Assembly: GCA_035696245.1 (NCBI GenBank)
Contig: DASRQW010000273.1
Coordinates: 1-51,827, forward strand
Direction of reading: 5' to 3'
DNA length: 51,827 nt
Source: Longimicrobiaceae bacterium
GTDB lineage: Bacteria; Gemmatimonadota; Gemmatimonadetes; Longimicrobiales; Longimicrobiaceae
A program made the position numbers and the translations under genes. Shown in pieces: positions 9,124 through 51,827 of this stretch (positions are counted from its first letter, which is position 1; each line of letters starts with the position of its first letter). The notes under the pieces were generated by a model. The model searched no databases, had not been told where the DNA came from, and saw nothing but the letters and a program-made list of their open reading frames with translations.

Positions 9124-9170
9124 CGGGTACCTTCGGGTATGTGCGTCGCGCGACGGGCGCGAGGGATGTA

Positions 9171-10366: not shown

Positions 10367-10377
10367 CTCCGCCCACC

Positions 10378-12851: not shown

Positions 12852-12852
12852 G

Positions 12853-13587: not shown

Positions 13588-13589
13588 CG

Positions 13590-15733: not shown

Positions 15734-15734
15734 C

Positions 15735-16169: not shown

Positions 16170-16200
16170 GACGCGTGCTGGATGATGAGGGGAGATGCGG

Positions 16201-17634
16201 TCACGCCTGCGCGACCCGCAGCACTTCTTCGGGGGTGGTGACGCCGGCGGCCACCTGCCGCCAGCCGTCGTCGCGCAGCGGCCGCATGCCGCCTTCCACG
16301 GCGGCGCGGCGGATAGACCCCGCGCCCTGGCGGCGCAGCAGCTCGGAGCGCACCGCATCGTCCACGCGAAGCAGCTCGTAGATGCCCGTGCGGCCGCGGT
16401 AGCCGGAGCCGCGGCAGAGCGCGCAGCCCCGCCCGCGGCGGATGCGCGACGCGGGGAAGCCGGCCGCCGCCATCTCCGCCGCGGCCCAGGCGGGCGGCGC
16501 CACCTCTTCCGCGCACTCCGGGCAGACGGTGCGCACCAGGCGCTGGGCGAGCACCCCATCCACCGTGCTGGCCACCAGGTACGGCTCCACGCTCAGGTCC
16601 ACGAGGCGGATCAGCGCGCCAGGGGCGTCGTTGGTGTGCAGGGTGGAGAGGACGAGGTGGCCGGTGAGCGCGGCCTGCACGCAGATCTCCGCCGTCTCGG
16701 CGTCGCGCATCTCGCCCACCAGGATCACGTCCGGGTCCTGGCGCAGGATGGACCGCAGCGCGACGGCGAACGTCACGCCCGCCTTGCGGTTCACGGGCAC
16801 CTGGGCGACGCCGGCCAGCGCGTACTCGACCGGGTCCTCCACCGTGACCACCTTCTCGCGGCCCGTGCGGATCATCTCCAGCGCGGCGTACAGCGTGGTC
16901 GTCTTCCCGCTGCCCGTGGGCCCCGTGGCGAGGATGACCCCGTGCGGGCGCGCCAGCAGCTCGTCGAACTGCTTTCGCGTCGCCGCGTCCATCCCCAGGT
17001 GGGAGAGGTCGTGCTGGCGTCCGCCCTCGTTCTCCAGCAGGCGCAGCACCATGCTCTCGCCGTGCAGCGTGGGCAGCGTGCTGAGGCGCACGTCCACCGC
17101 GCGGCCCTCCACACGGAGGCGGACGCGGCCGTCCTGCGGACGTCTCCGCTCCGCCACGTCCATCTCACCCATCACCTTGAGCCGGCCGATCACGGCGGAC
17201 GCCAGCGCCGGGGGCGGCGACGGCGCGGCGACCAGCACGCCGTCCACGCGGTAGCGGACCTCCAGCCCGCCGCGGCCCGTCTCCAGGTGCACGTCGCTGG
17301 CGCGCGCCTCCAGCGCCTCGCGCAGGATCAGGTTGACCAGGCGGATGACCGGTGCCTCCTGGATCCGCGCCGCCAAGTCTCCCTCCCCGGCATCGTCTCC
17401 CGCGCCGTCGCCCGGCTCGCCGAGCGAGGCGATCAGGTCCGCGGCCGTCTCGTCCGCGCCTTGCTCCAGCCGGGCGAGCGCGTTCGCCAGCTCCTCCGCC
17501 GGGATGCGCTCCACCGTGGGCTCGGCACCAAACGCCCAGCGCAGGTCGTCCATCACCTGCGGGTCCGGCTCCCCCGCCGCCAGCACGCGCACGCACCCCG
17601 CCTCGACGATGGGGATGACGCCCCACTCGACCAT
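16201..17634 (-). CDS. gspE: T2SS ATPase GspE
   Basis: Walker A GPTGSGKTTTLYA, Asp box, Walker B DPDVILVGEMRD, His box LTGHLVLSTLHTN, and a tetracysteine motif CPEC...CALCRGSGYRGRTGIYE. The start was chosen at MVEWGVIPIV; upstream ORF sequence is junk. Confidence 0.9.
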   Translation of the reverse strand: MVEWGVIPIVEAGCVRVLAAGEPDPQVMDDLRWAFGAEPTVERIPAEELANALARLEQGADETAADLIASLGEPGDGAGDDAGEGDLAARIQEAPVIRLVNLILREALEARASDVHLETGRGGLEVRYRVDGVLVAAPSPPPALASAVIGRLKVMGEMDVAERRRPQDGRVRLRVEGRAVDVRLSTLPTLHGESMVLRLLENEGGRQHDLSHLGMDAATRKQFDELLARPHGVILATGPTGSGKTTTLYAALEMIRTGREKVVTVEDPVEYALAGVAQVPVNRKAGVTFAVALRSILRQDPDVILVGEMRDAETAEICVQAALTGHLVLSTLHTNDAPGALIRLVDLSVEPYLVASTVDGVLAQRLVRTVCPECAEEVAPPAWAAAEMAAAGFPASRIRRGRGCALCRGSGYRGRTGIYELLRVDDAVRSELLRRQGAGSIRRAAVEGGMRPLRDDGWRQVAAGVTTPEEVLRVAQA

Positions 17635-18040
17635 GTAGGCAGTGGGCAGGGGAGGGTGCGACGATGCGGACGACACGAAGGTTCGGGAGGCGAGGAGATG
17701 GGGACGCCAGTCCGGCGCGCTGCCAGACGGACGCTGCGAAGTGGACGGCGGTCGCACGGGGAGACCTTCCGCCTGCGGCTCGCACGGCGTGAGGAAAGAC
17801 CGCCAAAGGTATCCAAAGCCGCCGCGGGTGGCAATCGCCGCCCACGCCCACGGCCGCGGTGCTACGCCATGGTACCGCAGCGTGTTAGCACCGCGTGAAC
17901 GGCCTTGCCCACCCCACCCGCGCGAGGACGGCGCCTGCGCGCCGCGGGCTCCCGGAAAACGCGTGGCGCGGGTATTTTCCGACCGACGCCACCGCATTCC
18001 TGCCGGCGGGCTGCTCCCCCCGATCACTGGTCCCACGCGC

Positions 18041-18598
18041 ATGAGAAGAATCCTGGCCGCCCTGCTCCCCCTCGTCCTCTCCGCCTGCGTGCCTCGATAC
18101 CGCGTGGCGGAGTGGCGCGACGACTTCGAGCAGACGGAGACCCGGCAGATGCGCGCCAACGTCCTGGCGGGCGAAGGCACCGGTCACGACTGGCTGGCGC
18201 TGGATGCCGAGTCCTCCCGGACCCGCGGCGACACGGCGCGATACGCGCTGGTGGTCGACTACCGCACCAGCGGCCACCCGCTTCGCGTGCCGGCCGGGGA
18301 GACGCTCGTGTTGCTGGTGGACAGCCAGCGCGTGGCCCTCCGCGGCGCCGGAAGCTCCGGGCACCGCGCCCGGTCGGGCGTGCGCGGCGACCGCGAGCAG
18401 GCGCGGTACCCCGTGTTCCGCACCCTCCTGGAGCGCATCGCCGCCGCGCGGATCGTGCGGGTGCGGCTCGCGGGCCAGCGCTACTACGTCGAGCGTTCCT
18501 TCTCCACTCTCAACCTGCGCCACCTGCGCGAGTTCCTTGCGCCGCCGGCGCCCAAGCCGCCGCGCACCCCCACGCAGGCGACCACCCCGCAGGCGTGA
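18041..18598 (+). CDS. Lipoprotein of unknown function
   Basis: MRRILAALLPLVLSAC carries a lipobox (LSAC). 185 aa with a Pro-rich tail. Divergent from gspE. Confidence 0.7.
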   Translation: MRRILAALLPLVLSACVPRYRVAEWRDDFEQTETRQMRANVLAGEGTGHDWLALDAESSRTRGDTARYALVVDYRTSGHPLRVPAGETLVLLVDSQRVALRGAGSSGHRARSGVRGDREQARYPVFRTLLERIAAARIVRVRLAGQRYYVERSFSTLNLRHLREFLAPPAPKPPRTPTQATTPQA

Positions 18599-21002: not shown

Positions 21003-21459
21003 AATGCAGAATAGCGCCGGTTTCGGACTCTCGCCGGACGCCGGCGTTCTATTCCGTCTGCTTTGCCCTTCCGCACGTCCCGCTTCCCGCCGGCGTTCGC
21101 CCACAGCGCGCGCTGGACCATCAAGGGTGTCCAGCAGGCGCCGAGCAGGGCCGCGCGGTCGCGGAGCGCGGATGCGTACCGTGCGAAGTACGCGGGCGTG
21201 AACGCCACGTCGCGAGGCCGGGCACCTGCGCCGCCACCAGCTCGTCGAAAAAGGGGTAGACGTGCGGGCACATATGCGGCTGCCGATGCCGTCGCCGGGC
21301 CGAGGCGGCCAGCTTGGCGAGCGTGGGATCGGGAGCGCAGGGTCGGACACGATGGCGAGGTCGGTGGTGCTGGGGGTTCTGCCAGCAGCTCGCCCGGCCC
21401 GTCGTCCGAACTCTATCCGTCTCACCGAGGGCGGGAGAGGATTGGCGCGATGGGGACAA
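20984..21459 (-). pseudogene. Decayed paralogue of the HhH-motif gene at 23259..23852
   Basis: Two ORF fragments in different frames match the intact copy. ...HVYPFFDELVAAQVPGL matches HAYPFFDELVAAQVPGL, and DVAFTPAYFARYASALRDRAALLGACWTPLMVQRALWANAGGKR matches DVAFTPAYYARYAAALRARADLLGNHWTPVMVERALWAHAGGKR. One C is missing near 21213 relative to the intact copy (GTCGCGAGG versus GTCGCCGAGG). The stop codon is lost. Confidence 0.6.
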
Positions 21460-21799: not shown

Positions 21800-21865
21800 T
21801 GGGGCACCACGCGTGATTTGATGTGTATTGCGGGGCTTTCGAAATAGAAGACCGGGAGCCGAGCG

Positions 21866-22321
21866 ATGCGAAAGCTGTACGTGGTGAAGTTGACGGAGTC
21901 CGAGCGTGGCGATCTGCATCGGCTGACACGCCGTGGCAAGGCAGGTGCGCGACAGATCAAGCGGGCGCTGGTGCTTCTGCGGGCCGACGAAGGTGCCACG
22001 GACGAGCAGATCGCCGCCGGAGTTGGCGTGGGCAGCGCAACGGTGGAGCGCATCCGCAAGCGGTTCGTCACCGAAGGGCTGGAGGAAGCGGTGACGGAGA
22101 AGCCTCGCCCGCCACTTCCGCCGAAGCTGGATGGGAAGGGGGAGGCGCTGCTGCTGGCACTGGCTTGCAGCGACGTGCCGGAGGGACATGCGCGCTGGAG
22201 CATGCAGATGCTGGCAGATCGTCTGGTCGCGTTGGGAGCCGTCGACGCCATCTCGGACGAGACGGTGCGGCGGAGTCTCAAAAAAGCAAGACGAAGCCGT
22301 GGCAGCGCCAGCAGTGGCTGA
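21866..22321 (+). CDS. IS630 transposase OrfA (HTH part)
   Basis: MRKLYVVKLTESERGDLHRLTRRGKAGARQIKRALVLLRADEGATDEQIAAGVGVGSATVERIRKRFVTEGLEEAV...ARWSMQMLADRLV... is a typical IS630 N-terminus. Confidence 0.85.
   Translation: MRKLYVVKLTESERGDLHRLTRRGKAGARQIKRALVLLRADEGATDEQIAAGVGVGSATVERIRKRFVTEGLEEAVTEKPRPPLPPKLDGKGEALLLALACSDVPEGHARWSMQMLADRLVALGAVDAISDETVRRSLKKARRSRGSASSG
22280..22286 (+). other. A_AAA_AAG slippery heptamer for -1 frameshifting
   Basis: OrfA reads CTC AAA AAA GCA; OrfB reads TCT CAA AAA AGC AAG ACG AAG CCG TGG, giving the K-x-KPW motif conserved in IS630 fusion transposases. Confidence 0.6.
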
Positions 22322-23244
22322 TCCCGGAGATCACGCCGGAGTTCATCTGGCGCATGGAGGACGTGCTCGACCTCTACGCCGAGGAGAGCGATCCAGAGCG
22401 CCCTCGAGTCTGCTTCGACGAGATGCCGCTGCAACTGGTCTCCGAAGTCCGCACCCCTCTGCCGGCGCGCCCCGGGCAGCCCGAAAGGTACGACTACGAA
22501 TACCGACGCGAAGGCACCTGCAACCTCTTCGTCTTCTTCAGCCCCGACATCGCCTGGCGAGAGGTCAAGGTCACCGACCGGCGCACTGGGGTCGACTTCG
22601 CCGAATGCATGCGGGACCTGGTGGACGTGCACTTCCCCAAGGCCGAGACAATCCGGGTGGTGCTCGACAACCTGAATACGCACACACCGGCCTCACTCTA
22701 CCAGGCGTTCTCGCCTGGGGAGGCGCGGCGAATTGTGAAGCGGCTGGAGTTCCACTACACCCCCAAACACGCGAGCTGGCTGAACATGGCTGAGATCGAG
22801 TTCTCCGTGCTGGGAGGCCAGTGTCTGGACCGTCGCCTGCCGACCCAACACAAGGTCCGCGTCGAGACGGCTGCGTGGTGCCGGGCACGCAACGAGAGCC
22901 GGGCCACCATTCGTTGGCAATTCACGACCGCCAACGCCAGAGAGAGGTTCTCGTCCCGATATCCATCGCCTCGGCCGTGGCGAGCCACTAGGCGCGTGTC
23001 GCCGCCCTGGACGGCAACCCCGCGCTGTAGGCAACGCCTCGGACCGAGCTACGAAAGCACCTCCGCGGCTTCGGGCGCGGAGGTGCTTTTGTTTTACGGT
23101 TGCCTCCGTTCGGTGGCGGGCGGCGGAAGCGATTGTGGTGCACGCCCCGTTAGACGGCAGATGCAGCATGACCTCTGCTTCGTTAATGGACGTCGACGGG
23201 CATCGATTCTCCTCTGTCGATCGTCCCCGCACGGGCCAGCCTAA
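22280..23244 (+). CDS. IS630 transposase OrfB (DDE part) entered by -1 frameshift; no stop inside the element
   Basis: ...KTKPWQRQQWLIPE...VCFDEMPLQL...NLFVFFSPDIAWR...VVLDNLNTHTP...HYTPKHASWLNMAEIEFSVL...IRWQFTTANARERFSSRYPS. Homology ends near 22975, but the frame stays open across the right IS end to 23244. Confidence 0.75.
23056..23095 (+). terminator. Canonical rho-independent terminator
   Basis: AGCACCTCCGCG (23056-67) / CGCGGAGGTGCT (23076-87) form a 12-bp perfect stem with an 8-nt loop, followed by TTTGTTTT. Confidence 0.7.
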
Positions 23245-23258
23245 GCTTGGTCGTTCCG

Positions 23259-23852
23259 CTAGCGCACTCCGCGCTTACCGCCGGCGTGCGCCCACAGCGC
23301 GCGCTCGACCATCACGGGCGTCCAGTGGTTTCCGAGCAGGTCTGCGCGGGCGCGCAGCGCGGCGGCGTAGCGCGCGTAGTACGCGGGGGTGAACGCGACG
23401 TCGCCGAGGCCGGGCACCTGCGCCGCCACCAGCTCGTCGAAGAACGGGTAGGCGTGGGGGGCGTATGCGGCCGCGACCGCGGACGCCGTCGCCGGGCCCA
23501 CGCCGGCCAGCTTCGCGAGCGTGGCGATGGGGCGCGCCGGGTCGGGGACGGCGGCGAGGGCTGCCGTGCTCGCGTCCACCACGGCCCCGGGCGGGTTGCC
23601 GCGGACGAGCGCCAGGTTTCGCGCCCGCCACACTCCGCGCGCCATCTTCCACTCCGTCAGCCGGACCAGCTCCGCGTGCGTGACGTGCGCCGGCTCGCGG
23701 GCCGCGATCGCGCCCGGCAGCTCGCCGCGATACCACGCATCCAGCTCCGGCAGCGGCTTCACGCCCTGCGCATCGACCACAGCGGCATACGCATCCAGCG
23801 CCGTCCGCCACGCTTTCGGCGCGTCGCTCGTCCAAAGGTCATCCATCGTCAT
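23259..23852 (-). CDS. HhH-motif protein of unknown function (197 aa)
   Basis: MTMDDLWTSDAPKAWRTALDAYAAVV...LAKLAGVGPATASAVAAAYAPHAYPFFDELV... contains a helix-hairpin-helix GVGPATAS signature. The start was chosen at the ATG at 23852; upstream ORF sequence is junk. Confidence 0.65.
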   Translation of the reverse strand: MTMDDLWTSDAPKAWRTALDAYAAVVDAQGVKPLPELDAWYRGELPGAIAAREPAHVTHAELVRLTEWKMARGVWRARNLALVRGNPPGAVVDASTAALAAVPDPARPIATLAKLAGVGPATASAVAAAYAPHAYPFFDELVAAQVPGLGDVAFTPAYYARYAAALRARADLLGNHWTPVMVERALWAHAGGKRGVR

Positions 23853-24078
23853 CAGGGGGTCGGAGGAAGTGTCGCCGGCTCGTCGGCTGCCGGGGCGCAC
23901 CGGTCGTGCCCGCACGCTGGCGGTGGCGTGTGGGGGAACGGCTACGCCGCCGGAAAGACGGGCTCGGGATCGAGCCACCTGTAGCCGCAAGGAGTTGCAC
24001 ATATTGGCGCAGAAATGGCTTCCGACATATCTCTACAACCGCGCCTAATGGGCCCTCGGTCGCTGGACCGAGTGGCGA

Positions 24079-24093: not shown

Positions 24094-24309
24094 CCGGGCT
24101 TCGGGCACGAGCGCCCGGCTGGCGAGGTTAAACAAACCGAAAACGGTACACGGCAAAGACCTACGCACTGGACGGGGAGTGGCACCCAGCCTGCATACCT
24201 TTAGACGACAGAAAACACAGAAACAGGTGGATGGTCATCCGGCTTGCGCTCTCTCCGCGCGGCTCCCGGCTCCTCTGCCGTCTCTCTCGAACGCATACCT
24301 GGGCACCCG

Positions 24310-25278
24310 ATGCACAGCCCCGACCCCACCGTCACGGCGAACATCTACAGCGCACGCCACCTGGACGAGATCGTCCGCGGCGTGGTCGTGCCGCTCCGGC
24401 ATGGCCTGGCCGAGCGGGGCATGGCGGACCGGTGGTCGCTCTGGACCATGCGCTACCTGCGCCGCGGTCCGCATCTCAAGCTGAGGCTGCACGGGCCCGA
24501 GCAGGAGGCGGGCGCCGTCCGCGAGCTCTTGGAGGAAGCGGCGGAGGCCCACTTCGCCTCGCTGTCGCCGGAGGGCGACGGCCCCATGAAGCACTCCAAG
24601 GCACCCGCCGGCGCGGTGGACCTGGAGGACGAGGGCGAAGGCGAGCGCCCGGACCGCACGCTGCTGTGGACGACGTACCGCCGCAGCGCCGTCTCGTTCG
24701 GCCCAGACACCCAGCTGTTGGCGGACGACCGCTACGTCTCCCTCTTCACCGCCTGCCTGGCTGCCGCGGGCGAGATCGCCGTCACCGCCATCGAGCCGGA
24801 GATCTCCGAGGCGGGGCGGCTCAAGGCCCTGCGCGGCGGCCTGGCTGCCGGCGTCTCCGGCCTGCCTCTGACAGAAACCGAGCGCGACCTCTACCTCGAG
24901 TACCACCGCGACTGGCTGCTCCGCTGGATGATGCCCCACGCCGAGCGCGACGCCGAGATGCTGGCGAAGTTCGACCTGCGGGCGGACGCGAGCGGCGCCG
25001 CGGCGGCGGAGATCCGGCGCATCGCGAGCGAGGGCCCGGCGGTCGGCGCCTTCGCCCGATGGCGCGACGCGCTGGCGGAGCTGGCGGCGTACGTCGCCCG
25101 GTTCCGCGGCGACCCCGCGCACCACGTGGACCCCTTCACGGCCGACCCCGTCTTCCCCGCCCTGTTCAAGGTCTTCCACTCGCTCGCCAACCAGCTCGGC
25201 GTGGACATGCTGAACGAGTCCATGCTGCACCACATCGTGCTGCGCGCGCTGGCCGGCGCCGCGGTGGCGGGAGCGTAG
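24310..25278 (+). CDS. Stand-alone SpaB_C / thiopeptide-type bacteriocin biosynthesis domain protein, paralogue 1 (322 aa)
   Basis: ...ANIYSARHLDEIVRGVVVPLRHGLAERGMADRWSLWTMRYLRRGPHLKLRLHGP... matches the N-terminal signature of LanB C-terminal (elimination) domains (hhhRY..GPHhRhRh). An alternative TTG start is at 24244. Confidence 0.8.
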   Translation: MHSPDPTVTANIYSARHLDEIVRGVVVPLRHGLAERGMADRWSLWTMRYLRRGPHLKLRLHGPEQEAGAVRELLEEAAEAHFASLSPEGDGPMKHSKAPAGAVDLEDEGEGERPDRTLLWTTYRRSAVSFGPDTQLLADDRYVSLFTACLAAAGEIAVTAIEPEISEAGRLKALRGGLAAGVSGLPLTETERDLYLEYHRDWLLRWMMPHAERDAEMLAKFDLRADASGAAAAEIRRIASEGPAVGAFARWRDALAELAAYVARFRGDPAHHVDPFTADPVFPALFKVFHSLANQLGVDMLNESMLHHIVLRALAGAAVAGA

Positions 25279-25281
25279 CGC

Positions 25282-28044
25282 TTGCCGCGTACCGCACGCA
25301 ACCGCGCGCCCGTGATCGGGCGCTTCGGCGGGCTGCCCGCGGAGACGGTGGAGGCGTTCTCCACCGCCCTCTGCGGCGCCGCGGACGCGCTGGCTGCGCT
25401 CGAGTCGGAGCTGGCCGGGTGCCGCGAGGCGCTGGCCGACCGGCTGCACGACGCGGTGCCGGGCGCCGCGCTGGAGCTGCGCCGGCTGCTGCTGGCGGTG
25501 CGCCGCGACTGCCATAACGGGCGCGGCATCGCCCGGCACCGGCGCTCGCCGCAGTGGCCGCTGGTGGCGGACGCGGCGGGTTCGCTCGCCGGGCAGGTGG
25601 GCGAGCTGGAAGACCGCGTGGCGGATGCCTGGGCCGCGTTCCGCAGCGACTACGAAGCGGAGCGCGACCGCCAGAGGGGCGCCCTGCGCGAGCCGCTGCG
25701 GGACCGCGCGTTCATGCGCGGCCTCGCCCTGGCGAGCCCCGACCTGTACGACGCCTGCCGGCAGCTCGCCGCCTCGCCCACCGTCGCGCGGAAGGATGCG
25801 AAGAGCGAGGCGGCCCTGCTCCGCTACGTGGTGCGCGCGGCGCTCAAGACCTCGCCGTTCTCCACCTTCACGCCCGTGTCGGTGGGCGCGGCGGATGGAG
25901 ATGCGGGCGCGGCCGGCCTCCGCATCGCCGGCGGGGAGACGGAGCCGCGGTCGCTGGTGCGGCTCAAGCGCTTCCGCCTGGGCCAGCTCAGCGACGCGCT
26001 CTGTAGGTACGCTCCCTTCCGCGACGGCCTGCGCGTGGTGTTGAACGACTCGGCCGAGGACACGGAGCCGGGGCGCGCACTGCTGCTGCGGCCGGGCTGC
26101 TGGGAGGGAGCGGCCGACCGCGGCACGCTGCGCTACCGCGCCGATGCGCTGGTCCGCGTGGGCATCGCCGCCCCGCTCGTCCGGCGCGCCATGGAGCTCC
26201 TGGCCGAGGGCCGCCACACGTTCGGCGAGCTGGTGGCGCGAATCGAGGGCGAAGGCGCACCGGAAGATGCCGCATCCGCCCCGAGCCAGCTGGAACGGCT
26301 GGCGGAGCTGGGGATGCTGCGGCTGGTGCTGCCGTGGCCGTCGCAGGCCGGGCACCTGGAGGCGCGGATGTGCGACGCCCTCCGCGCGCTTCCGTACGAC
26401 GCCGCGCTGGAGCCGTTCATCTCCCGGCTGGAGCGGCTGGTGGCGCTGGAGGAGGGCTACGCGCAGGCATCCGACCCCGCCGCGTCGCTCCGCGAGATGC
26501 GGCGCCTGGTGGACGAGCTGTGGGGTGCGGCCGCGGCGCTGGGCGGCCGGTCCTTCGCCGGCACCGCCTACCGCGGCACCGCGCGCTACGACCTGTACGA
26601 GGACGTCCTGCTCGTGCCCGGCGGGGCGGAGACCGCGCCGGCCTTCCACCTCTCCGGCGACGCCGCCCGCCGCGCGCTGCGAAGCGCCGAGCCGCTGGCG
26701 GACCTCGCCGCGCTCTGCGACGACCGGCAGGACTTCCGCGCCGCCCTCGCCGCCTTCGCGGCGGAGACGTGGCCGGGACGCGGCGAGGTGGGCGTGCTGG
26801 AGCTGTTCTCGGCCGCGCAGCCGCTGTGGCAGGCGTACCTGGCGTTCCGCGCCGCGGGTTTCCAGGAACGCGACCCCGGACGGACGTGGAACCCGCGCGG
26901 CCTGCCGGAGGTGGAGACGCTCCGGGCCTGCCGCGCCATGGTGATGGACCGCCTGGCGGGGTGCGTGGAGACGCTGCCGGACGGCGACGCGTGCGTGGAC
27001 GAGGACCGGCTGCGGTCGCTGATCGGCGCGGTGCCGTCCGGCCTCACGGACGGCGGCGGCGGCGGGGCGTGCCTCTTTCTCCAGCCCGCCAGCCGCGACG
27101 GCTCGCTCTGGCGGCTGAACGCGGTGCGCGAGGGCACCGGCCGCTGCGGGAGCCGCTACACCCCCGCCATGCCCGCCGCGCTCCGCCGGGAGTACGCCGC
27201 GCACCTCCGCGCCCGCGGCACCGTCACCGTGGACGGCGAGCGGGCGGAGCTGCTGGACCTGTTCGCGGTGCAGGGCGACACGCTGAACGTGCACGCGCCC
27301 CAGACCCCCGCCGTGCTCGCCTTCCCCGGCGAGCGGACGGGGGTAGCGCCGCACCGCCGCGTGCCGCTGGGCGACCTGCGCGTGTGCTTCGACGGTCCCG
27401 CCGGGCGCATCGCGCTGCGCGGTGTGGACGGGCGGAGGTTCGTGCCGGTCCACCTGGGTCTTGCGTACGAGGCGTACATGCCGCCGGTGGTGCGCTTCCT
27501 CATGGCGCTGGGGCCCAGCGAGCGCGGCTCCATCCTTCCGCCCGCTCCCGAGCGCGCGGAAGGGGAGGTGCGGATTCGCGCGCGCACGACGCTGGGCAAC
27601 CTGGTCGTCCACCGCCGCGCGTGGTCCGTCCCCGCCGCCCCGCTCGCCGCCGCGCTGGCCGCGACCGACGACGCACGCGCTTTCGCCGACGCCAACCGGC
27701 TCCGTGCCGGGTGGGGCATCCCGGAGCGCGCCTTCGTCCGCGAGGCCATGACGCACCCCCTGGCCGGCACCGTCCGCAAGCCCCGCTACGTGGACTTCAC
27801 GTCGCCGCTCTTCCTTTCCGTGCTGCGCGAGCTGGCGGCCACGGGCGAGGAGCGCATCACCGTCGAAGAGATGCTTCCCGACCCCGCGATGCTCCCGCGC
27901 GACGCCGCGGGGCGGAGCCGGGCCGTGGAAGTCTTGGTCGACTCGCTGGCCCTGCGCCGGCGCACGCAACGCGCGGAGGCCGCTCCGCTCCGCCGTACCC
28001 GCGCCCGCACTGGGCGCACCCCCGCCGGCACCGCCGCCGGGTGA
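25282..28044 (+). CDS. Stand-alone LanB-type dehydratase N-terminal (glutamylation) protein (920 aa)
   Basis: The TTG start lies 4 nt after the upstream stop. VIGRFGGLPAETV...LRRLLLAVRRDCHNGR...FMRGLALASPDLYDA...EAALLRYVVRAALKTSPFSTFTPVSVG... follows the conserved LanB N-domain pattern (L.RY..R...R.TPFG.F). The size fits split-LanB glutamylation proteins. There is no C-terminal elimination domain. Confidence 0.85.
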   Translation: MPRTARNRAPVIGRFGGLPAETVEAFSTALCGAADALAALESELAGCREALADRLHDAVPGAALELRRLLLAVRRDCHNGRGIARHRRSPQWPLVADAAGSLAGQVGELEDRVADAWAAFRSDYEAERDRQRGALREPLRDRAFMRGLALASPDLYDACRQLAASPTVARKDAKSEAALLRYVVRAALKTSPFSTFTPVSVGAADGDAGAAGLRIAGGETEPRSLVRLKRFRLGQLSDALCRYAPFRDGLRVVLNDSAEDTEPGRALLLRPGCWEGAADRGTLRYRADALVRVGIAAPLVRRAMELLAEGRHTFGELVARIEGEGAPEDAASAPSQLERLAELGMLRLVLPWPSQAGHLEARMCDALRALPYDAALEPFISRLERLVALEEGYAQASDPAASLREMRRLVDELWGAAAALGGRSFAGTAYRGTARYDLYEDVLLVPGGAETAPAFHLSGDAARRALRSAEPLADLAALCDDRQDFRAALAAFAAETWPGRGEVGVLELFSAAQPLWQAYLAFRAAGFQERDPGRTWNPRGLPEVETLRACRAMVMDRLAGCVETLPDGDACVDEDRLRSLIGAVPSGLTDGGGGGACLFLQPASRDGSLWRLNAVREGTGRCGSRYTPAMPAALRREYAAHLRARGTVTVDGERAELLDLFAVQGDTLNVHAPQTPAVLAFPGERTGVAPHRRVPLGDLRVCFDGPAGRIALRGVDGRRFVPVHLGLAYEAYMPPVVRFLMALGPSERGSILPPAPERAEGEVRIRARTTLGNLVVHRRAWSVPAAPLAAALAATDDARAFADANRLRAGWGIPERAFVREAMTHPLAGTVRKPRYVDFTSPLFLSVLRELAATGEERITVEEMLPDPAMLPRDAAGRSRAVEVLVDSLALRRRTQRAEAAPLRRTRARTGRTPAGTAAG

Positions 28045-28094: not shown

Positions 28095-28214
28095 ATGGCT
28101 CAGGACACCAACCAGCAGGACGCCGAGATCCAGCCCCTCTCGGACGAGTCGCTCGAGGAAGTCGCCGGCGGCGTCTGCTCGTGGAGCGGCTGCTCGAACA
28201 GCGCCTCGCTGTAA
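28095..28214 (+). CDS. Precursor peptide P1 (39 aa)
   Basis: AGGAGG lies 6 nt upstream. MAQDTNQQDAEIQPLSDESLEEVAGG|VCSWSGCSNSASL. Confidence 0.85.
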   Translation: MAQDTNQQDAEIQPLSDESLEEVAGGVCSWSGCSNSASL

Positions 28215-28278
28215 GCTCGCACAACGTCTCCAGGCCGGCACCGGCCCGGAACACCCCCTCACCACATGGAGGCACACC

Positions 28279-28392
28279 ATGGCTCAGGACACCAACCAGC
28301 AGGACGCCGACATCCAGCCCCTCTCGGATGAGTCGCTCGAGGAAGTCGCCGGCGGCCTCTGCTCGTGGAGCGGCTGCTCGAACAGCGCCTGA
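28279..28392 (+). CDS. Precursor peptide P2 (37 aa)
   Basis: GGAGG SD. MAQDTNQQDADIQPLSDESLEEVAGG|LCSWSGCSNSA. Confidence 0.85.
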   Translation: MAQDTNQQDADIQPLSDESLEEVAGGLCSWSGCSNSA

Positions 28393-28454
28393 TCTTCGAC
28401 CCCGCCGGGCCGCCCCGGCCCGGACCCCTGAACACCCACTCAAGGAGGCACATC

Positions 28455-28589
28455 ATGGCTCAGGATCCCAACCAGCAGGACGACATCCAGCCCCTCTCGG
28501 ATGAGTCGCTCGAGGAAGTCGCCGGCGGCGTCTGCTCGTGGAGCGGCTGCTCGAACGGCGCCAGCGCGCCCGCACCTACGGTCGACTAA
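28455..28589 (+). CDS. Precursor peptide P3 (44 aa)
   Basis: AGGAGG SD. MAQDPNQQDDIQPLSDESLEEVAGG|VCSWSGCSNGASAPAPTVD. Confidence 0.85.
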   Translation: MAQDPNQQDDIQPLSDESLEEVAGGVCSWSGCSNGASAPAPTVD

Positions 28590-28598
28590 GAGGACGGC

Positions 28599-28712
28599 AA
28601 GGCTCAGCATCTCGACCAGCACGCCGCCGGCATCCAGTCCCTCCCTGACGAGTCGCTGGAGGAAGTGGCCGGCGGAGTGTGCTGGTGGAGCTGCTGCCCG
28701 AACAGCGACTGA
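28599..28712 (+). pseudogene. Decayed precursor copy psi-P4 (start codon ATG changed to AAG; both invariant Ser lost)
   Basis: AAG GCT CAG CAT... aligns with ATG GCT CAG GAT... of its neighbours. It would read KAQHLDQHAAGIQSLPDESLEEVAGG|VCWWSCCPNSD. No alternative start is available and the SD is degraded (AAGAGGAC). Confidence 0.7.
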
Positions 28713-28772
28713 TCTCGTTCCACCGTCCGGGCCCCGACGGCGCGGACCACACTCCAACTGAAGAGGCACACC

Positions 28773-28907
28773 ATGGCACAGGATCCCAACCAGCAGGACG
28801 ACATCCAGCCGCTCTCGGACGAGTCGCTGGAGGAAGTGGCGGGGGGCATCTGCTCGGTCAGCAGCTGCTCGAACACCACCACCAGCACGAAGCCTTCGGG
28901 CAGCTAG
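28773..28907 (+). CDS. Precursor peptide P5 (44 aa)
   Basis: AGAGG SD. MAQDPNQQDDIQPLSDESLEEVAGG|ICSVSSCSNTTTSTKPSGS. Confidence 0.85.
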   Translation: MAQDPNQQDDIQPLSDESLEEVAGGICSVSSCSNTTTSTKPSGS

Positions 28908-28917
28908 GAGGCACACC

Positions 28918-29040
28918 ATGGCCCAAGATCCCAACCAGCAGGATGACATCCAGCCGCTCTCGGACGAATCGCTCGAGGAAGTGGCCGGCGGCATCTGCTC
29001 GTGGAGCGGGTGCTCGAACTCCTCGATCGTGCAGAAGTAG
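28918..29040 (+). CDS. Precursor peptide P6 (40 aa)
   Basis: AGGAGG SD overlapping the P5 stop. MAQDPNQQDDIQPLSDESLEEVAGG|ICSWSGCSNSSIVQK. Confidence 0.85.
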   Translation: MAQDPNQQDDIQPLSDESLEEVAGGICSWSGCSNSSIVQK

Positions 29041-29051
29041 TATCGACCGTG

Positions 29052-29077
29052 CGAGGGGGGGCGGCCTGCCCCCCTCG
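29052..29077 (+). terminator. Strong G/C hairpin closing the first precursor block (attenuator or mRNA-stabilising stem; no T tract)
   Basis: CGAGGGGGG (29052-60) / CCCCCCTCG (29069-77), 8-nt loop, 12 nt after the P6 stop. Confidence 0.45.
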
Positions 29078-29146
29078 CCCGGCACCCCGGCTTTCCTCCA
29101 ACCACGCGGAACCGTGACGCAGACAGCCTCGCCCGAAGCCGCCGCC

Positions 29147-29806
29147 ATGCCCTGGTTCGACCTCGTCTCGCTGTCGGGCGACGAGGGGCGGCGCTGGCGC
29201 GAGCAGTACGGGCGCTTCGACAGCGTGGCGAAGGGGATCATGGGCTCGGTGCCGCTCCTGCGCCGGGGCGAGATCGACACCGGCGCCCGCATGCTGAAGG
29301 ACGCGCGCGAGCAGCTCTCGGCCATGGACGTCGGCGACGAATCGATCCTCTCGGTGATGGAGCGCTGGTACCTGGGCGCGCTGGGGATGTACCACTACCG
29401 CCTCGCCGAGTTCGACGAGGCCGACCGCGTGATGGCGCGTGCCCACGAGCACATGGTGGACGCGGTCACCCGGCGCGGCTTCCTGGTTGTGCTGGCCGAC
29501 GAGGCGGTGGAGCTGCGGCTGCACCGCGCGCGCATCTCGCGCAACCGCCAGCGCTGGGCGGAGATGTGGGACCACATCTCCGCCGCGCGGGCCATGCGGG
29601 CGGGCGGCGAGCCGTTCTACGTGCTGCGCGACGGCAGGAGCGTGTGGCTCTCGGACGTGCGCGAGTTCCTGGAAGCGCTTCCCGCGGCGCCGGAGCAGCG
29701 GCCGGTGAAGCCGAACCTCCAGGATCCCACGCAGTGCCGCCAGGACATAGACCGCTGGATTCGCGACGTGCTGCGCATCCCTGACTCGGTCATCCACGCG
29801 CCCTGA
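29147..29806 (+). CDS. 219-aa protein of unknown function embedded between the two precursor blocks
   Basis: MPWFDLVSLSGDEGRRWREQYGRFDSVAKGIMGSVPLLRRGEIDTGARMLKDAREQL...; predicted all-helical and soluble. No LanC, protease or transporter motifs. An alternative GTG start is at 29114. Confidence 0.7.
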   Translation: MPWFDLVSLSGDEGRRWREQYGRFDSVAKGIMGSVPLLRRGEIDTGARMLKDAREQLSAMDVGDESILSVMERWYLGALGMYHYRLAEFDEADRVMARAHEHMVDAVTRRGFLVVLADEAVELRLHRARISRNRQRWAEMWDHISAARAMRAGGEPFYVLRDGRSVWLSDVREFLEALPAAPEQRPVKPNLQDPTQCRQDIDRWIRDVLRIPDSVIHAP

Positions 29807-29882
29807 TCCCGCACGCGCGCTCGCCCGGACGCCGGGCTCGCTTCCAAGCGGCGACTGGACCACCTTCCATCGAAAGCACGCC

Positions 29883-30017
29883 ATGAATCCCCAGGACCAG
29901 CAGGCCGAGCAGGCGATGGACGACGTGGAGGTCGAGCCGCTCCACGACGACGCGCTGGAGCAGGTCGCGGGCGGCAACATGTGCTCGCTCACCATGTGCT
30001 CGAACGTGTCGGTGTAG
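29883..30017 (+). CDS. Precursor peptide P7 (44 aa)
   Basis: MNPQDQQAEQAMDDVEVEPLHDDALEQVAGG|NMCSLTMCSNVSV. Weak SD. Confidence 0.75.
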   Translation: MNPQDQQAEQAMDDVEVEPLHDDALEQVAGGNMCSLTMCSNVSV

Positions 30018-30089
30018 GCTGCGAACCCGCGCGTCCCTGCCGGACATCCGCCGCGGACGTGGAAACAGCTCACGAAGAGCCGGAAGATC

Positions 30090-30218
30090 ATGTCGAAGCA
30101 AGCGCAGATGGAGCAGCAGCCGGACGAAGTGCTGGTGGACGCGATCACCGACGAGTCGCTGGAGGAGGTCGCGGGCGGCATCTGCTCGATGGTCAACTGC
30201 TCGAACGTCCCGGACTGA
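30090..30218 (+). CDS. Precursor peptide P8 (42 aa)
   Basis: MSKQAQMEQQPDEVLVDAITDESLEEVAGG|ICSMVNCSNVPD. Confidence 0.75.
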   Translation: MSKQAQMEQQPDEVLVDAITDESLEEVAGGICSMVNCSNVPD

Positions 30219-30351
30219 CCGCCGCGATCGGCCCGAGTCCTCGCGGGGCGGGCGATGCGGCCGGCCGTCGATCCCCGCTCAGAATCCACGGCCGCGCAGG
30301 CGACGCCGCCCGGACGCGGACAGGTTCAACCTTGCAGCGAAGGAGGTCGTG

Positions 30352-30477
30352 ATGCCGCCGGAAGAACAGCGCAGCGACGCGTTGGAGGATGCGGAGATCG
30401 AGCCGCTCCACGAAGAAGCGCTCGAAGAGGTGGCGAAGGGGCCCTGTTCCCTGACCTACTGCTCCAACCAGGGCTGA
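30352..30477 (+). CDS. Precursor peptide P9 (41 aa; KG instead of GG)
   Basis: AGGAGG lies 5 nt upstream. MPPEEQRSDALEDAEIEPLHEEALEEVAKG|PCSLTYCSNQG. Confidence 0.75.
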   Translation: MPPEEQRSDALEDAEIEPLHEEALEEVAKGPCSLTYCSNQG

Positions 30478-30603
30478 CCGGTCCGGTGGACGTCACCCGC
30501 CCTTCGATGATCGGACGCGTGCGGTCCATAGCGATTCGGTCCACACCGCGCCGGTTTATACCACCGGCGCGAACCGTTTCCACTCGCAACGAGGCAGGCT
30601 CCA

Positions 30604-30732
30604 GTGCCCCAGAACGACGAACAGCGCTCGGACGCGGTGAACGAGGCGGAGGTCGAGCCGCTCCAGGACGACGCGCTCGAAGAGGTGGCAGGCGGAATGT
30701 GCTCCTGGGCCTACTGCTCGGCGCAGGTGTAG
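30604..30732 (+). CDS. Precursor peptide P10 (42 aa, GTG start)
   Basis: GAGG lies 9 nt before the GTG. (M)PQNDEQRSDAVNEAEVEPLQDDALEEVAGG|MCSWAYCSAQV. No in-frame ATG is available. Confidence 0.7.
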   Translation: MPQNDEQRSDAVNEAEVEPLQDDALEEVAGGMCSWAYCSAQV

Positions 30733-30868
30733 CCGGCCCGATGGGCACGACGCCGCGCCGTCGGATGGTGGCGCGCCGCGCTCCGTGCATCTTCTCGCCG
30801 TCACCGAAATGCTGTGGCTCGCGGGCAGACGCACGCGGGCAGACAATCTCACGGGAGGCAAGACGATC

Positions 30869-31003
30869 ATGTCCCAGGATCCACAGGTGGAGCAGGGCGT
30901 CGCGGACGCCGAGATCGAGCCGCTTCACGACGCGGCGCTGGAAGAGGTCGCCGGTGGCAACGGCTGCTCGATGGCCTACTGCTCGTACGTCGAGCCGGCG
31001 TAG
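30869..31003 (+). CDS. Precursor peptide P11 (44 aa)
   Basis: GGGAGG SD. MSQDPQVEQGVADAEIEPLHDAALEEVAGG|NGCSMAYCSYVEPA. Confidence 0.75.
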   Translation: MSQDPQVEQGVADAEIEPLHDAALEEVAGGNGCSMAYCSYVEPA

Positions 31004-31104
31004 GCCGCGGCCACCGAGCACATCTCGACAGGCCGCACGCCGGCGGCTCCACCGCACGACGAGCCCGGCGCACGGCCGGGAAAACCCACACCGAGGTGAC
31101 CGCC

Positions 31105-31236
31105 ATGTCGCAGGACATGCAGGCCCAGCAGGCGATCGAAGCGGCGGACGTCGAGCCACTCGCTGACGAGTCGCTGGAGGAGGTCGCGGGCGGCATCTGC
31201 TCCCTCACCGCCTGCTCCAACAGCAAGGAGCTGTGA
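31105..31236 (+). CDS. Precursor peptide P12 (43 aa)
   Basis: GAGGTG SD. MSQDMQAQQAIEAADVEPLADESLEEVAGG|ICSLTACSNSKEL. Confidence 0.75.
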   Translation: MSQDMQAQQAIEAADVEPLADESLEEVAGGICSLTACSNSKEL

Positions 31237-31384: not shown

Positions 31385-32296
31385 ATGAAGCATCTCGCTC
31401 TCAACGTCTACCTTCGCGGTCGCGCGGCGCAGGATCGGCTGCTGGCCGAGTGCGTCGGCCCGGCGGTGGAGGAGATGCGGGGCAGCGGCCTCGTCCGCCG
31501 CTTCTGGTTCCAGCCGTTCGACGCGCGCGGCCCGCACGTCGGCGTCGTCCTCGGCGTCGCGGACGACGCGGCGGATGAGGTACGGGCGGAGTTTTCGGCG
31601 CGCCTGGAAGCCTTCCTCGCCACGCATCCCTCCACCGAGCCGCTGAGCGACGAGGAGGTGGCGCGGCGTCACGCCGAGTGCCGCGGCAAGCGGCTCTGCT
31701 CGATCGACGCGGAACCGGGCATCGCCGCGCCCGGCACCTTCGCGTTCGCGGAAGAGGCCGCCCCGCGCTACCCCTTCGGCCCGATGCCGCAGCCCGGGGC
31801 GGACGACCGGGCGGGGGAGATGATGTGCGGCCTGGCGCTGTGGAGCATCGGCCATCTGCGCGCCGGCACGGGCTCGCGCGCGGCCGTGCGATGGGCGGCA
31901 TCCGTGGACCTGGCTCTTCGCGAGAGCGGCGAGGCGGCGGACGACTACTGGCGCCGCCACGCGTCCACTCTGCTCGTGGGGCTGGACGAACGGTACGATG
32001 CCGACCCGGAGGCGATCGTCTCGCGCTTGCGCGAGCTGGTCGGCGACCGCAACCGCGACGCGTTTGCGCGGGCGTGGGCGGAGGTCGAAGCCGACGGGCC
32101 GCCGTGGTCTTCCGCGACCGAGCTCGTGGAGCACGCGCTCCGCGAGGGCGCCCAGTCGCCGCACGGACGATGGGGAGTGCTGCGGGAGGTGAACCACTGC
32201 GTGCTGCTCCAGCTCGGGCAGATGGTGCGGCTGCACGTGCCGCTGGTGCTGTACGCGTGGCTGCGCGGCTCGCCCGTCGCCGCGGTGGCTTCGTGA
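31385..32296 (+). CDS. Stand-alone SpaB_C / TIGR03891-type protein, paralogue 2 (303 aa)
   Basis: MKHLALNVYLRGRAAQDRLLAECVGPAVEEMRGSGLVRRFWFQPFDARGPHVGVVLG... has the same N-terminal architecture as the other two, but the RY..GPH.R.R signature is degenerate (FQPFDARGPHVGVV). Confidence 0.75.
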   Translation: MKHLALNVYLRGRAAQDRLLAECVGPAVEEMRGSGLVRRFWFQPFDARGPHVGVVLGVADDAADEVRAEFSARLEAFLATHPSTEPLSDEEVARRHAECRGKRLCSIDAEPGIAAPGTFAFAEEAAPRYPFGPMPQPGADDRAGEMMCGLALWSIGHLRAGTGSRAAVRWAASVDLALRESGEAADDYWRRHASTLLVGLDERYDADPEAIVSRLRELVGDRNRDAFARAWAEVEADGPPWSSATELVEHALREGAQSPHGRWGVLREVNHCVLLQLGQMVRLHVPLVLYAWLRGSPVAAVAS

Positions 32297-33351
32297 GCGT
32301 AGCGGCGCCGCCGGACGCGGGCCTCGGCTGGCGAGCGTATCACCTCGTCTGCCACGGCGACCGCGACCGGCTCCTCGCGGAGATGGTGCGCCCGCTCGCC
32401 GCGTCGCTGCTGCGCGATGGGGCGATCTCGCGCTTCTTCTTCATCCGCTACGCCGTGGGCGGGCCGCACGTCCGCTTCCGCGTGCTGCCCTGCCCCGGCC
32501 GCGAGCGGGAGGCGAACGAGCGCATCCACGCGGCGGCGTCGGAGTTCTTCGCGCGCCACCCATCCCCCGCCCCGCTGGCGCCGGAGACGATCCGCGAGCG
32601 CAACCGCGGCGTCGCCGCCTCCGATCCCGGCGAGGCGGAGATGGCGGACCTCGTGCTGCCCGGCGACAGCGTCGTCGAGAGCCCGGTGAAGCTCGAGACG
32701 GAGCGGTACGGCGGCCCGGAGCGCCTGGCGGATTCCGTCGCGCTCTTCACCCTCTCCAGCATCGACGCGCTGGCGTGGCTAAACGAAGGCGAGCCCACCG
32801 CCGCGCGCCGTCTGACGGAAGCTTCGCGTTCCCTCCTCCGCCACGCGTGGAGCTTCGCGGCGGACCCGGCCGAGATGGTGCGGCTGATCGGCTGGGCGGC
32901 GGGTGGCGCGGCGGGCCCGCTGGAGCGCTTCGTGAGCGAGGGCGACGCGGCGTTCGACCGGCGTCCGGAGCCACTCATCGCCCGTGTGCGTGGTGAGATG
33001 GAGGCGCTCTCCGGCATCGCCGCATCGACGGAGATCCCGATGCGCTGGGCGGAGGGGCCGCGGGTTCTCGGCGCCACGCTTCGCGACGCGCCGGCAGACG
33101 TGCGGCTGCGCATCGCGTCCAGCCACGCGCACATGAGCGCGAACCGCCTGGGCATCACCGTCGCGGAGGAGGTCTACGTCTCCCGCATGCTCTGGCGCGC
33201 CGCCCGTGCCCTGGCTGACGCGGAGCCGGCGTTCTGGCGCGACGCTGCGGAACGCCTCGCATCTCCCGAACCGCCGGACGCGTCGCTGGACGACCTCGTC
33301 CGCATCTCCCTGCAACGGTTCACGGGGGATGTGATCGCATCCACCCGTTAA
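32293..33351 (+). CDS. Stand-alone SpaB_C / TIGR03891-type protein, paralogue 3 (352 aa)
   Basis: The GTG start overlaps the upstream TGA (GTGA). ...WRAYHLVCHGDRDRLLAEMVRPLAASLLRDGAISRFFFIRYAVGGPHVRFRVLPCPG...SEFFARHPSP... is the closest of the three to the canonical LanB elimination-domain signature. Confidence 0.85.
   Translation: MSVAAPPDAGLGWRAYHLVCHGDRDRLLAEMVRPLAASLLRDGAISRFFFIRYAVGGPHVRFRVLPCPGREREANERIHAAASEFFARHPSPAPLAPETIRERNRGVAASDPGEAEMADLVLPGDSVVESPVKLETERYGGPERLADSVALFTLSSIDALAWLNEGEPTAARRLTEASRSLLRHAWSFAADPAEMVRLIGWAAGGAAGPLERFVSEGDAAFDRRPEPLIARVRGEMEALSGIAASTEIPMRWAEGPRVLGATLRDAPADVRLRIASSHAHMSANRLGITVAEEVYVSRMLWRAARALADAEPAFWRDAAERLASPEPPDASLDDLVRISLQRFTGDVIASTR

Positions 33352-33681: not shown

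Positions 33682-51827
<18,146 letters not shown>

Follow-up and report, generated by a model that had tools for sequence, protein, structure and literature searches.

The window analysed here is the whole of a 51,827-nucleotide (nt) stretch from a Longimicrobiaceae bacterium (contig DASRQW010000273.1, GenBank assembly GCA_035696245.1; G+C 71.5%), which was mapped by gene calling based on third-codon-position G+C together with Pfam and NCBIfam scans. Between positions 28095 and 31236 it carries, on the + strand, an array of 12 units, made up of 11 intact precursor open reading frames (ORFs) of 37-44 codons each and one dead copy (P4), next to genes for LanB-type enzymes. The array is very probably the precursor library of a split-LanB pathway for peptides that are made on the ribosome and modified after translation (RiPPs), in which the Cys-Ser-x3-Cys-Ser motif of the precursor cores would be the substrate of CB, a SpaB_C paralogue of 303 amino acids (aa). 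The genes of the cluster are as follows.

24244-25278, + strand, CA, Lant_dehydr_C-like (50 bits)
25282-28044, + strand, BN, Lant_dehydr_N (PF04738; 81.8 bits, cut-off 28)
28095-29040, + strand, precursor units P1-P6:
28095-28214, + strand, P1 precursor, core VCSWSGCSNSASL, GGAGG 7 nt upstream
28279-28392, + strand, P2 precursor, core LCSWSGCSNSA
28455-28589, + strand, P3 precursor, core VCSWSGCSNGASAPAPTVD
28590-28712, + strand, P4 dead copy, core VCWWSCCPNSD, both Ser lost, start codon absent
28773-28907, + strand, P5 precursor, core ICSVSSCSNTTTSTKPSGS
28918-29040, + strand, P6 precursor, core ICSWSGCSNSSIVQK
29147-29806, + strand, U219, no family match
29883-31236, + strand, precursor units P7-P12:
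29883-30017, + strand, P7 precursor, core NMCSLTMCSNVSV
30090-30218, + strand, P8 precursor, core ICSMVNCSNVPD
30349-30477, + strand, P9 precursor, GTG start, core PCSLTYCSNQG, leader end A-K-G
30604-30732, + strand, P10 precursor, GTG start, core MCSWAYCSAQV
30869-31003, + strand, P11 precursor, core NGCSMAYCSYVEPA
31105-31236, + strand, P12 precursor, core ICSLTACSNSKEL
31385-32296, + strand, CB, weak Lant_dehydr_C
32293-33351, + strand, CC, Lant_dehydr_C (PF14028; 115 bits) and TIGR03891 (89.6 bits, above its cut-off)

All 11 intact ORFs share one layout: an acidic leader ending ...LEEVAGG (with exceptions in P8 and P9), one or two further residues, C-S-x3-C-S and a variable tail. Translation exactly reproduced the ORFs and core sequences listed in a preliminary description of this DNA, and with them the invariance of Cys-Ser-x3-Cys-Ser in 11/11 intact precursors, the S-x4-S spacing of the core being likewise present in every one, and the Asn that directly follows the motif in nine of the 11. 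The same description had the P7-P12 leaders all keep the (E/Q)PL element and the VAGG end; most do, but P9 ends A-K-G and P8 lacks (E/Q)PL, its sequence there being VDAITDESLEEVAGG. Thus the double-glycine leader motif L-x-x-E-L-x-x-V-x-G-G has its GG end in 10/11 precursors and KG in P9. Given its Lys-Gly in place of Gly-Gly, P9 may be a leader that a C39 peptidase cannot cut. The P4 unit abuts the stop codon of P3 and translates as ...LEEVAGGVCWWSCCPNSD; no ATG, GTG or TTG start was found ahead of its core.

Several observations bear on the reality of these small genes. Six-frame translation of the array region gave 11 CS...CS matches, against a mean of 0.05 and a maximum of 2 in 500 dinucleotide-preserving shuffles, and the other 48.7 kb of the window gave only two, both in wrong frames of a non-ribosomal peptide synthetase (NRPS) gene. 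Most units have a Shine-Dalgarno box of the GGAGG or GAGG type a few bases 5' of the start codon. Comparison of selection on leader and core, as the preliminary description had proposed, gave a clear difference: across the last 16 codons of the P1-P6 leaders the synonymous divergence (pS) was 0.29 and the ratio of non-synonymous to synonymous divergence (pN/pS) 0.04, whereas the three variable core codons (x3) had a pN/pS of about 2 across the array. Purifying selection thus acts on the P1-P6 leaders, and the interior of the core diversifies. Because of the Shine-Dalgarno boxes and these two ratios, we regard the ORFs as real, selected coding sequences. A tandem-repeat finder returned a period of 318 nt with 2.3 copies over P2-P6, which indicates that this part of the array grew by tandem duplication of a 318-nt two-gene unit. 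Four precursors scanned against Pfam and NCBIfam reached the cut-off of no model; they gave sub-threshold matches only, to the Bacteriocin_IIc, Nif11, NHLP and CTB models, and are not members of those curated families. The earlier proposals that the ORFs are RiPP precursors with a double-glycine-type leader tied to LanB-type enzymes, and that they form a library on a fixed seven-residue scaffold, are both supported.

Two of the flanking genes would account for a LanB-type dehydration activity. CC (352 aa) conserves all NisB elimination residues, namely R786 (within H-x-R-x-R), R826 (E-x-E-R-Y-G-G) and H961 (H-x-x-x-N-R-L-G), and is predicted to be a bona fide glutamate-elimination enzyme and the partner of BN (920 aa), itself a predicted LanB N-terminal-type glutamylation enzyme. 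An identical Logan contig, where the called gene has 322 aa, places the start of CA near 24310. CA can be aligned with the whole of CC (hhalign, probability 98.4%) and keeps the equivalents of NisB R786 and H961, with ERYGG replaced by W-T-x-Y-R-R-S. It matched no PDB entry by sequence, lies directly upstream of BN in relatives and is a LanB C-terminal (SpaB_C)-like paralogue. U219 (219 aa), encoded inside the array between P6 and P7, had no match in Pfam, NCBIfam or PDB sequences; its 18 homologues are syntenic in relatives. The AlphaFold2 (AF2) model of U219 is all-helical, with a predicted local distance difference test score (pLDDT) of 93.3, and a fold search returned weak matches only (E ~0.1), of the tetratricopeptide repeat (TPR) type, to the peptide-binding chaperones or receptors PcrH, kinesin light chain, Rap and NprR. 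A role as a peptide-binding scaffold or chaperone is a reasonable guess from this model.

BN has 35 homologues with 41-97% identity, all in metagenomes or in metagenome-assembled genomes (MAGs) of Longimicrobium, and the next match falls from 553 to 143 bits. A search of 185,579 species genomes with the BN alignment gave 30 family loci, all in MAGs and assigned to Longimicrobium/Longimicrobiaceae (Gemmatimonadota) or to Thermoanaerobaculia, Holophagales and Ca. Angelobacter (Acidobacteriota). The window itself was traced to the 124-kb contig Ga0372948_0000028 of JGI metagenome 3300035678. In tblastn searches with the five window proteins, the module CA-BN-precursor(s)-U219-CB-CC was found in about 20 MAG or metagenome loci (numbered L here), and more distant loci held BN and CC only, with or without LanC. 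A split-LanB pathway with a precursor array is typical of Longimicrobiaceae and Acidobacteriota. The pairing of LanB-type enzymes with a double-glycine leader, which the preliminary description had called unusual, is the rule in this family; Gram-negative class I lanthipeptides with such a leader and LanB/LanC are also known, namely viridisin and Ped15 (PMC9680876).

In complete relatives, the exporter that this leader type calls to mind is part of the cluster. The gene order of L042 is MacB, LanC, CA, BN, precursors, glycosyltransferase, U219, CB, CC and C39-peptidase ATP-binding cassette (ABC) exporter; L043 has the same gene set, except that CC and the C39-ABC exporter are joined as one 1,119-aa protein (10864-14223). 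The L043 contig is an Acidobacteriota or Gemmatimonadota metagenome sequence, and its fusion joins dehydration to leader cleavage and export. In L002, OEP-HlyD-C39 genes lie downstream of the cluster. L002, L042 and L043 each have a C39-peptidase exporter as part of the cluster, L028 has one within 10 kb, and a C39-peptidase ABC transporter lies no more than 10 kb from the LanB gene in L002, L017, L019, L020, L028, L042 and L043. The leader end ...EIEPLSDEALEEVAGG is conserved throughout the relatives, and on these comparisons leaders in the family are taken off at the GG by a C39 exporter. Within the window, no C39 domain, HlyD or OEP was matched by tblastn with the relatives' sequences, even at E<5, and the ORF scans also agree with the earlier statement that no GG-peptidase is encoded there.

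The core motif follows the presence of CB. C[ST]-x3-C[ST] occurs in 36/38 peptides of CB-containing loci (for example SCCSCSSCSR, CCSCQNCSN, CSGSFCSH, CSVWCCS and CSWDDCSN) against 0/13 peptides of CB-lacking loci, where cores read CTCSNCPTFTCP, CPTTYTCP... or GCSCDNTTSSCTG; the motif anticipated for the family from the 11 window peptides is thus kept when homologues are aligned. In the CTCSNCP type of CB-lacking locus it is the second Ser that is missing, with Pro in its place. In the core, invariance is confined to two Cys and two Ser, with Thr at position 7 in the CB-containing locus L016 (CSVWCCT) and in P0138. Comparative genomics shows the motif to be the 'business end' of CB. L014 (1960-18742) has two adjacent sub-clusters, one without CB (CTCSNCPTFTCP cores) and one with CB (CCSCKGCS core), and L015 (2254-4420) has eight precursor genes, one of them with a degenerate motif (CRSMADCS); the two loci are a natural experiment on CB specificity. 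In a subgroup with CSVWCC[ST] cores (L005, L016, L018, L031 and L035), a JmjC-type (cupin) hydroxylase and a MacB-type exporter lie downstream of CC and replace LanC and the C39 exporter; these genes, and the glycosyltransferase that L042 carries inside its precursor array, seem to mark family variants that differ in tailoring.

When a profile built from the 11 window peptides was run against 1.84 billion representative proteins, it returned 92 clusters (50% identity; E<=1e-3), of which 81 have the motif, a share that is biased and not independent, as the query profile itself holds the motif. For two peptides found by this peptide profile alone, the source contigs were located. Each peptide is encoded within the same module, one of them on a contig with BN, CB and CC, so that the genomic neighbours are again LanB-type genes, as the preliminary description would have it.

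LanC varies in a way that can be read from the cores. It lies directly upstream of CA in the CB-type loci L003, L009, L011, L013, L014, L028, L032, L042 and L043, is also present in most CB-less loci and adjoins CA in >10 related loci. The eight assessable LanC-containing CB loci with the standard motif all have the extended form C-C-S-C-x-x-C-S, with two extra Cys, and a spacer of 5-21 residues after the GG that is mostly Ser/Thr-rich. By contrast, the eight CB loci that lack LanC (this window, L002, L005, L016, L018, L031, L033 and L035; LanC sought 10 kb either side) all have a single Cys before Ser2, xCSxxxCS, and little or no spacer. In the 51.8-kb window, neither Pfam models run on the ORFs of the cluster nor tblastn with the relatives' LanC at E<5 turned up a LanC. 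As LanC tracks the extra Cys, we infer that the minimal C1-S2...C6-S7 unit, in which both Cys are still kept, would be processed without LanC, and that LanC would serve the extra Cys and the spacer Ser/Thr.

Among 177,635 PDB sequences, the CB profile matched only the pyridine synthases PbtD (E 2.4e-5, ~180 aligned residues) and TbtD (E 8e-5), and CB and PbtD share WFxRxxxRGPH and L-x-AHPS. In a Foldseek search with the AF2 model of CB (pLDDT 91.9), the best 12 matches were TbtD/PbtD (E 3e-8 to 1e-6; template modelling (TM) score 0.53-0.66), several orders of magnitude better in E than the LanB elimination domains (E ~1e-3 or weaker). CB lacks both of the catalytic, eliminating Arg, as do pyridine synthases. 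It is, however, only 17-20% identical to TbtD/PbtD and scores 47 bits against the pyridine-synthase equivalog NF045556, whose cut-off is 325; and because CC, too, has TbtD as its best PDB sequence match, part of the likeness is generic to stand-alone SpaB_C proteins. Tyr319 of TbtD is needed for aromatisation (PMC12018205). It stands two residues before a conserved His, and the aligned position is variable in 46 CB sequences and Val in the window, a comparison of moderate weight, as it was aligned by motif only (Y-L-H...RLG in TbtD versus x-N-H...QLG in CB; the PbtD counterpart is Y293). The polar residues D46, R48, H51, W231, R267 and H271 are invariant in CB and suggest an active site. A LanC-like Zn site for thiol activation is not supported, since the candidates C99 and C105 are conserved in only 38/46 sequences. 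CB is possibly, although we hold this tentatively, a new branch of the LanB-C-terminal/pyridine-synthase fold that makes a LanC-independent cross-link in C-S-x3-C-S, either as a thioether cyclase or as a non-aromatising aza-cyclase.

The following route is the one we favour. The acidic leader ...EPLSDExLEEVAGG would dock the peptide on BN and perhaps on the TPR-like U219. BN would then glutamylate Ser2 and Ser7 of C1-S2-x3-C6-S7 with Glu-tRNA, and CC, with its conserved catalytic residues, would by homology eliminate glutamate to leave two dehydroalanines (Dha). A thioether between Dha2 and Cys6 would close a ring of five residues, comparable to the ring A found in nisin or mutacin 1140, and a second one between Cys1 and Dha7 would form a ring around the first, giving a doubly thioether-bridged knot without LanC, with CB as the likely catalyst or template of the thioethers. 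The hypervariable x3 and tail would yield 11 different products, and the leader would be cut behind the GG on export by a C39-peptidase ABC transporter that, judging from relatives, would be encoded outside the window. That the leader is retained until export is evidently what the gene content implies, given the GG leader and the C39 exporter in relatives' clusters, once fused to CC.

A compact, CB-dependent bis-thioether knot made from two Dha and two Cys is thus our preferred product, at a confidence somewhat short of probable. It is favoured because two Cys and two Ser alone are invariant, because both Cys are kept where LanC is absent, and because Thr is tolerated at position 7 (L016) and the leader evidently stays until export. 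Thr at position 7 fits (methyl)lanthionine chemistry, and we know of no natural pyridine-forming position that is occupied by Thr. The Ser(i)-Cys(i+4) spacing, with the ring sequence S-W-S-x-C, is that of ring A of nisin-type lantibiotics. Several points weigh against the knot. To our knowledge, thioether formation by a SpaB_C-fold protein has no precedent, and the nearest characterised relatives of CB are all [4+2] aza-cyclases. A bridge from Cys1 to Dha7, in which Cys is the N-terminal partner and a 2-6 ring lies nested inside, would be unusual; the thioethers could also arise on their own, in which case CB would have no role. LanC and the exporter are both absent from the window, so the pathway here may be incomplete. 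The loci behind the counts of CB with the motif and with LanC are not phylogenetically independent, and the product is a prediction from the genes.

The remainder of the window is occupied by the following features.

1457-5020, - strand, RHS-repeat protein (ORF of 1,187 aa), possibly a polymorphic toxin
6298-7346, - strand, IS630-like element, split into a helix-turn-helix ORF and a DDE_3 ORF by a frameshift or a programmed overlap
7519-18180, - strand, complete type II secretion operon (GspD secretin, M/N-like, K, pseudopilins, F, G, E)
about 18.2-21.8 kb, ORFs without Pfam match
21071-21304, - strand, partial copy of U247 (last 80 residues, 62% identical)
21823-23244, + strand, IS630-type DDE_3 transposase
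23259-24002, - strand, U247, a 247-aa gene of no named family
after 33351, hairpin and 330-nt gap
33682-51827, + strand, NRPS ORF of >6,000 codons, condensation domain first (C-A-T modules), open past the window end

The secretin and full type II secretion operon mark the host as a diderm and not an actinomycete, and the close homologues of the window proteins, all of them from MAGs of Longimicrobium, Longimicrobiaceae or Acidobacteriota, agree with this. The host is a soil bacterium, probably of the Longimicrobiaceae (Gemmatimonadota). The transposase at 21823-23244 occupies the place of LanC in relatives, and its position between U247 and the fragment copy of that gene suggests a local rearrangement. 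Directly after CC, where an exporter is absent, come the hairpin and the NRPS gene. A link between the array and this giant neighbour was considered and set aside, given the hairpin and 330-nt gap between them and the absence of an NRPS neighbour in relatives; the NRPS gene probably belongs to a separate cluster of the lipopeptide type. An antiSMASH region labelled 'lanthipeptide, NRPS' is also present in the type strain of L. terrae (PMC7291104).

The strongest competitor to the bis-thioether knot is a pyritide- or thiopeptide-like route, in which CB joins Dha2 and Dha7, once made by BN and CC, by a formal aza-[4+2] cycloaddition into a six-membered N-heterocycle that closes a 14-membered macrocycle, with the Cys left as thiols or a disulfide or used in further links; we consider it rather doubtful. 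Everything that ties CB to PbtD and TbtD speaks for it, that is, the exclusive PDB sequence matches, the 12 best Foldseek matches, the loss of the eliminating Arg and the shared WFxRxxxRGPH, and so do the S-x4-S spacing, which is the same in the pyritide precursor MroA1 (SGWLGS; PMC9247985), the strict tie of CB to the second Ser and the 7-8 CB-containing clusters without LanC. Yet the same comparison is loosened by the low identity, the modest TM scores, the distance from the equivalog cut-off and the partly generic likeness seen with CC. The invariant Cys are both left without a role, and as free thiols beside Dha they would compete; Thr stands at position 7 in a CB-containing locus; the C-terminal W-x-I recognition tripeptide and YcaO are absent; and the conserved GG with an in-cluster C39 exporter speaks indirectly against leader ejection. 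Of the suggestion of pyridine chemistry in the preliminary description, the closeness of CB to TbtD/PbtD stands, while the missing aromatising Tyr (variable in CB at the aligned position, Val in the window), the unexplained Cys and the GG/C39 logic argue against a canonical pyritide route. We regard the canonical outcome, a pyridine formed by aromatisation with loss of the leader, as very unlikely, and a dehydropiperidine-type ring that is not aromatised and keeps its leader for later GG cleavage as unlikely; if an aza-[4+2] reaction takes place at all, the non-aromatised, leader-retaining ring would be likelier than a pyritide proper.

Two further explanations are less likely. The products could be ordinary class I lanthipeptides, their rings closed spontaneously or by a LanC encoded elsewhere in the genome, with CA, CB and U219 as non-catalytic accessory, leader-binding or specificity factors for the split dehydratase. 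In most relatives LanC does lie directly upstream of CA, the family passes gradually into simple LanC+BN+CC clusters whose cores are of the typical Thr/Cys kind, and antiSMASH labels such Longimicrobium loci 'lanthipeptide' (PMC7291104). Still, not even at E<5 was a LanC found in the 51.8 kb of the window, the eight LanC-less CB loci are exactly those with minimal two-Cys (or three-Cys) cores, the invariant D46, R48, H51, R267 and H271 suggest an active site in CB, and CB tracks the motif strictly; we hold this explanation to be quite improbable. The cluster could instead be decaying or orphaned, its LanC and exporter removed by a rearrangement mediated by an insertion sequence (IS) and no mature product secreted. 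The IS630-type transposase at the LanC position with a duplicated gene fragment alongside, the dead unit P4, the K-G for G-G of P9 and the hairpin and NRPS gene where an exporter would follow CC all suit this scenario. It is at odds with leaders under strong purifying selection that have diverged at synonymous sites, with intact Shine-Dalgarno boxes and with five intact enzyme and accessory genes; seven to eight other LanC-less loci share the minimal core type, and C39 exporters can act in trans. We judge decay to be very improbable.

Set beside described systems, the cluster matches none throughout. The pyritides of Micromonospora rosaria (MroA1/A2, MroB, MroC and MroD) are like it in their split LanB with a third SpaB_C-fold paralogue and no YcaO, in two Ser five positions apart (SGWLGS in MroA1, S-x3-C-S here) and in a short macrocycle with a variable interior. 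Unlike them, the present family has an invariant Cys before both Ser, a double-glycine leader with a C39 exporter and not leader ejection, a CB without the aromatising Tyr at the aligned position, no C-terminal W-x-I tripeptide, the extra paralogue CA and a TPR-like protein, LanC in many relatives, and hosts in Gemmatimonadota and Acidobacteriota, not actinomycetes. Thiopeptide pathways (TbtB/TbtC/TbtD, PbtD) supply the nearest solved structures to CB, and the Cys-Ser at the second cyclisation site resembles the thiazole-Dha of thiopeptides; but YcaO and azoline dehydrogenase were found neither among the scanned window ORFs nor in the Pfam tables of L002, L003, L005, L042 and L043, the ring would span only five residues, and CB stays at 47 bits against the 325-bit equivalog cut-off.

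The Gram-negative class I lanthipeptides that have split LanB or double-glycine leaders, pinensin and viridisin (VdsA1-3, VdsB/VdsC), share LanB-type dehydration and several precursors with a conserved GG leader (PMC9680876; PMC7268733), as well as the LanC and C39 exporter present in most relatives of the window cluster. They differ from a window without LanC, and from a family that adds CA, CB and U219 and in which CS-x3-CS is tied to CB, not to LanC. Extra LanB-C-terminal paralogues of unassigned function have been seen in class I clusters in a large survey (PMC7268733). The prochlorosins (ProcM with ~30 ProcA) resemble the array in having one enzyme set for many precursors with a double-glycine leader and hypervariable cores, a natural combinatorial library, but theirs are class II LanM enzymes and Nif11 leaders with no fixed ring scaffold, whereas here a scaffold of seven residues is invariant and LanB-type enzymes are used. 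Nisin, epidermin and mutacin 1140 share the Ser(i)-Cys(i+4) spacing in their ring A, and the S-W-S-G-C ring sequence found here resembles the S-W-S-L-C of mutacin 1140. Unlike nisin-type ring A, the sequence has no ring B (T-P-G-C) after it, and an extra flanking Cys and Ser are invariant; lipid II binding by the products would be pure speculation.

The system resembles a hybrid of class I lanthipeptide and pyritide pathways, and the window fails defining features of each, having no LanC, YcaO, aromatising Tyr or C39 exporter. In the literature searched we found no description of the five-gene module, of the CS-x3-CS family or of Longimicrobiaceae RiPP chemistry beyond an antiSMASH list, in which loci of this kind are entered as 'lanthipeptide' and without known homologues (PMC7291104). 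Were the product an ordinary lanthipeptide, this would be a routine genome-mining find; as it stands, the cluster is a well-defined lead from genome mining that can be put to the test, and the chance that it holds new enzyme chemistry is fair.

If CB cross-links CS-x3-CS without LanC, this would be new enzyme chemistry on a well-studied fold. A nested bis-lanthionine knot made by CB would make it the first thioether cyclase of the SpaB_C fold; alternatively, CB would be a non-aromatising aza-cyclase that acts on a thiol-bearing substrate. The motif would then be a tiny, genetically encoded and leader-directed macrocyclisation tag (seven residues, three of them free to vary, and a tail that is free as well) already used in nature as a library, and such a tag would be of interest to peptide engineering and display libraries. 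The finding also gives access to RiPP chemistry in two soil phyla that have been little studied, where the family is large but unnamed (92 peptide clusters). Either role of CB, if true, would define a new RiPP subclass, spread widely among uncultured members of the Gemmatimonadota and Acidobacteriota, whose naturally diversified libraries reach 11 precursors in a cluster.

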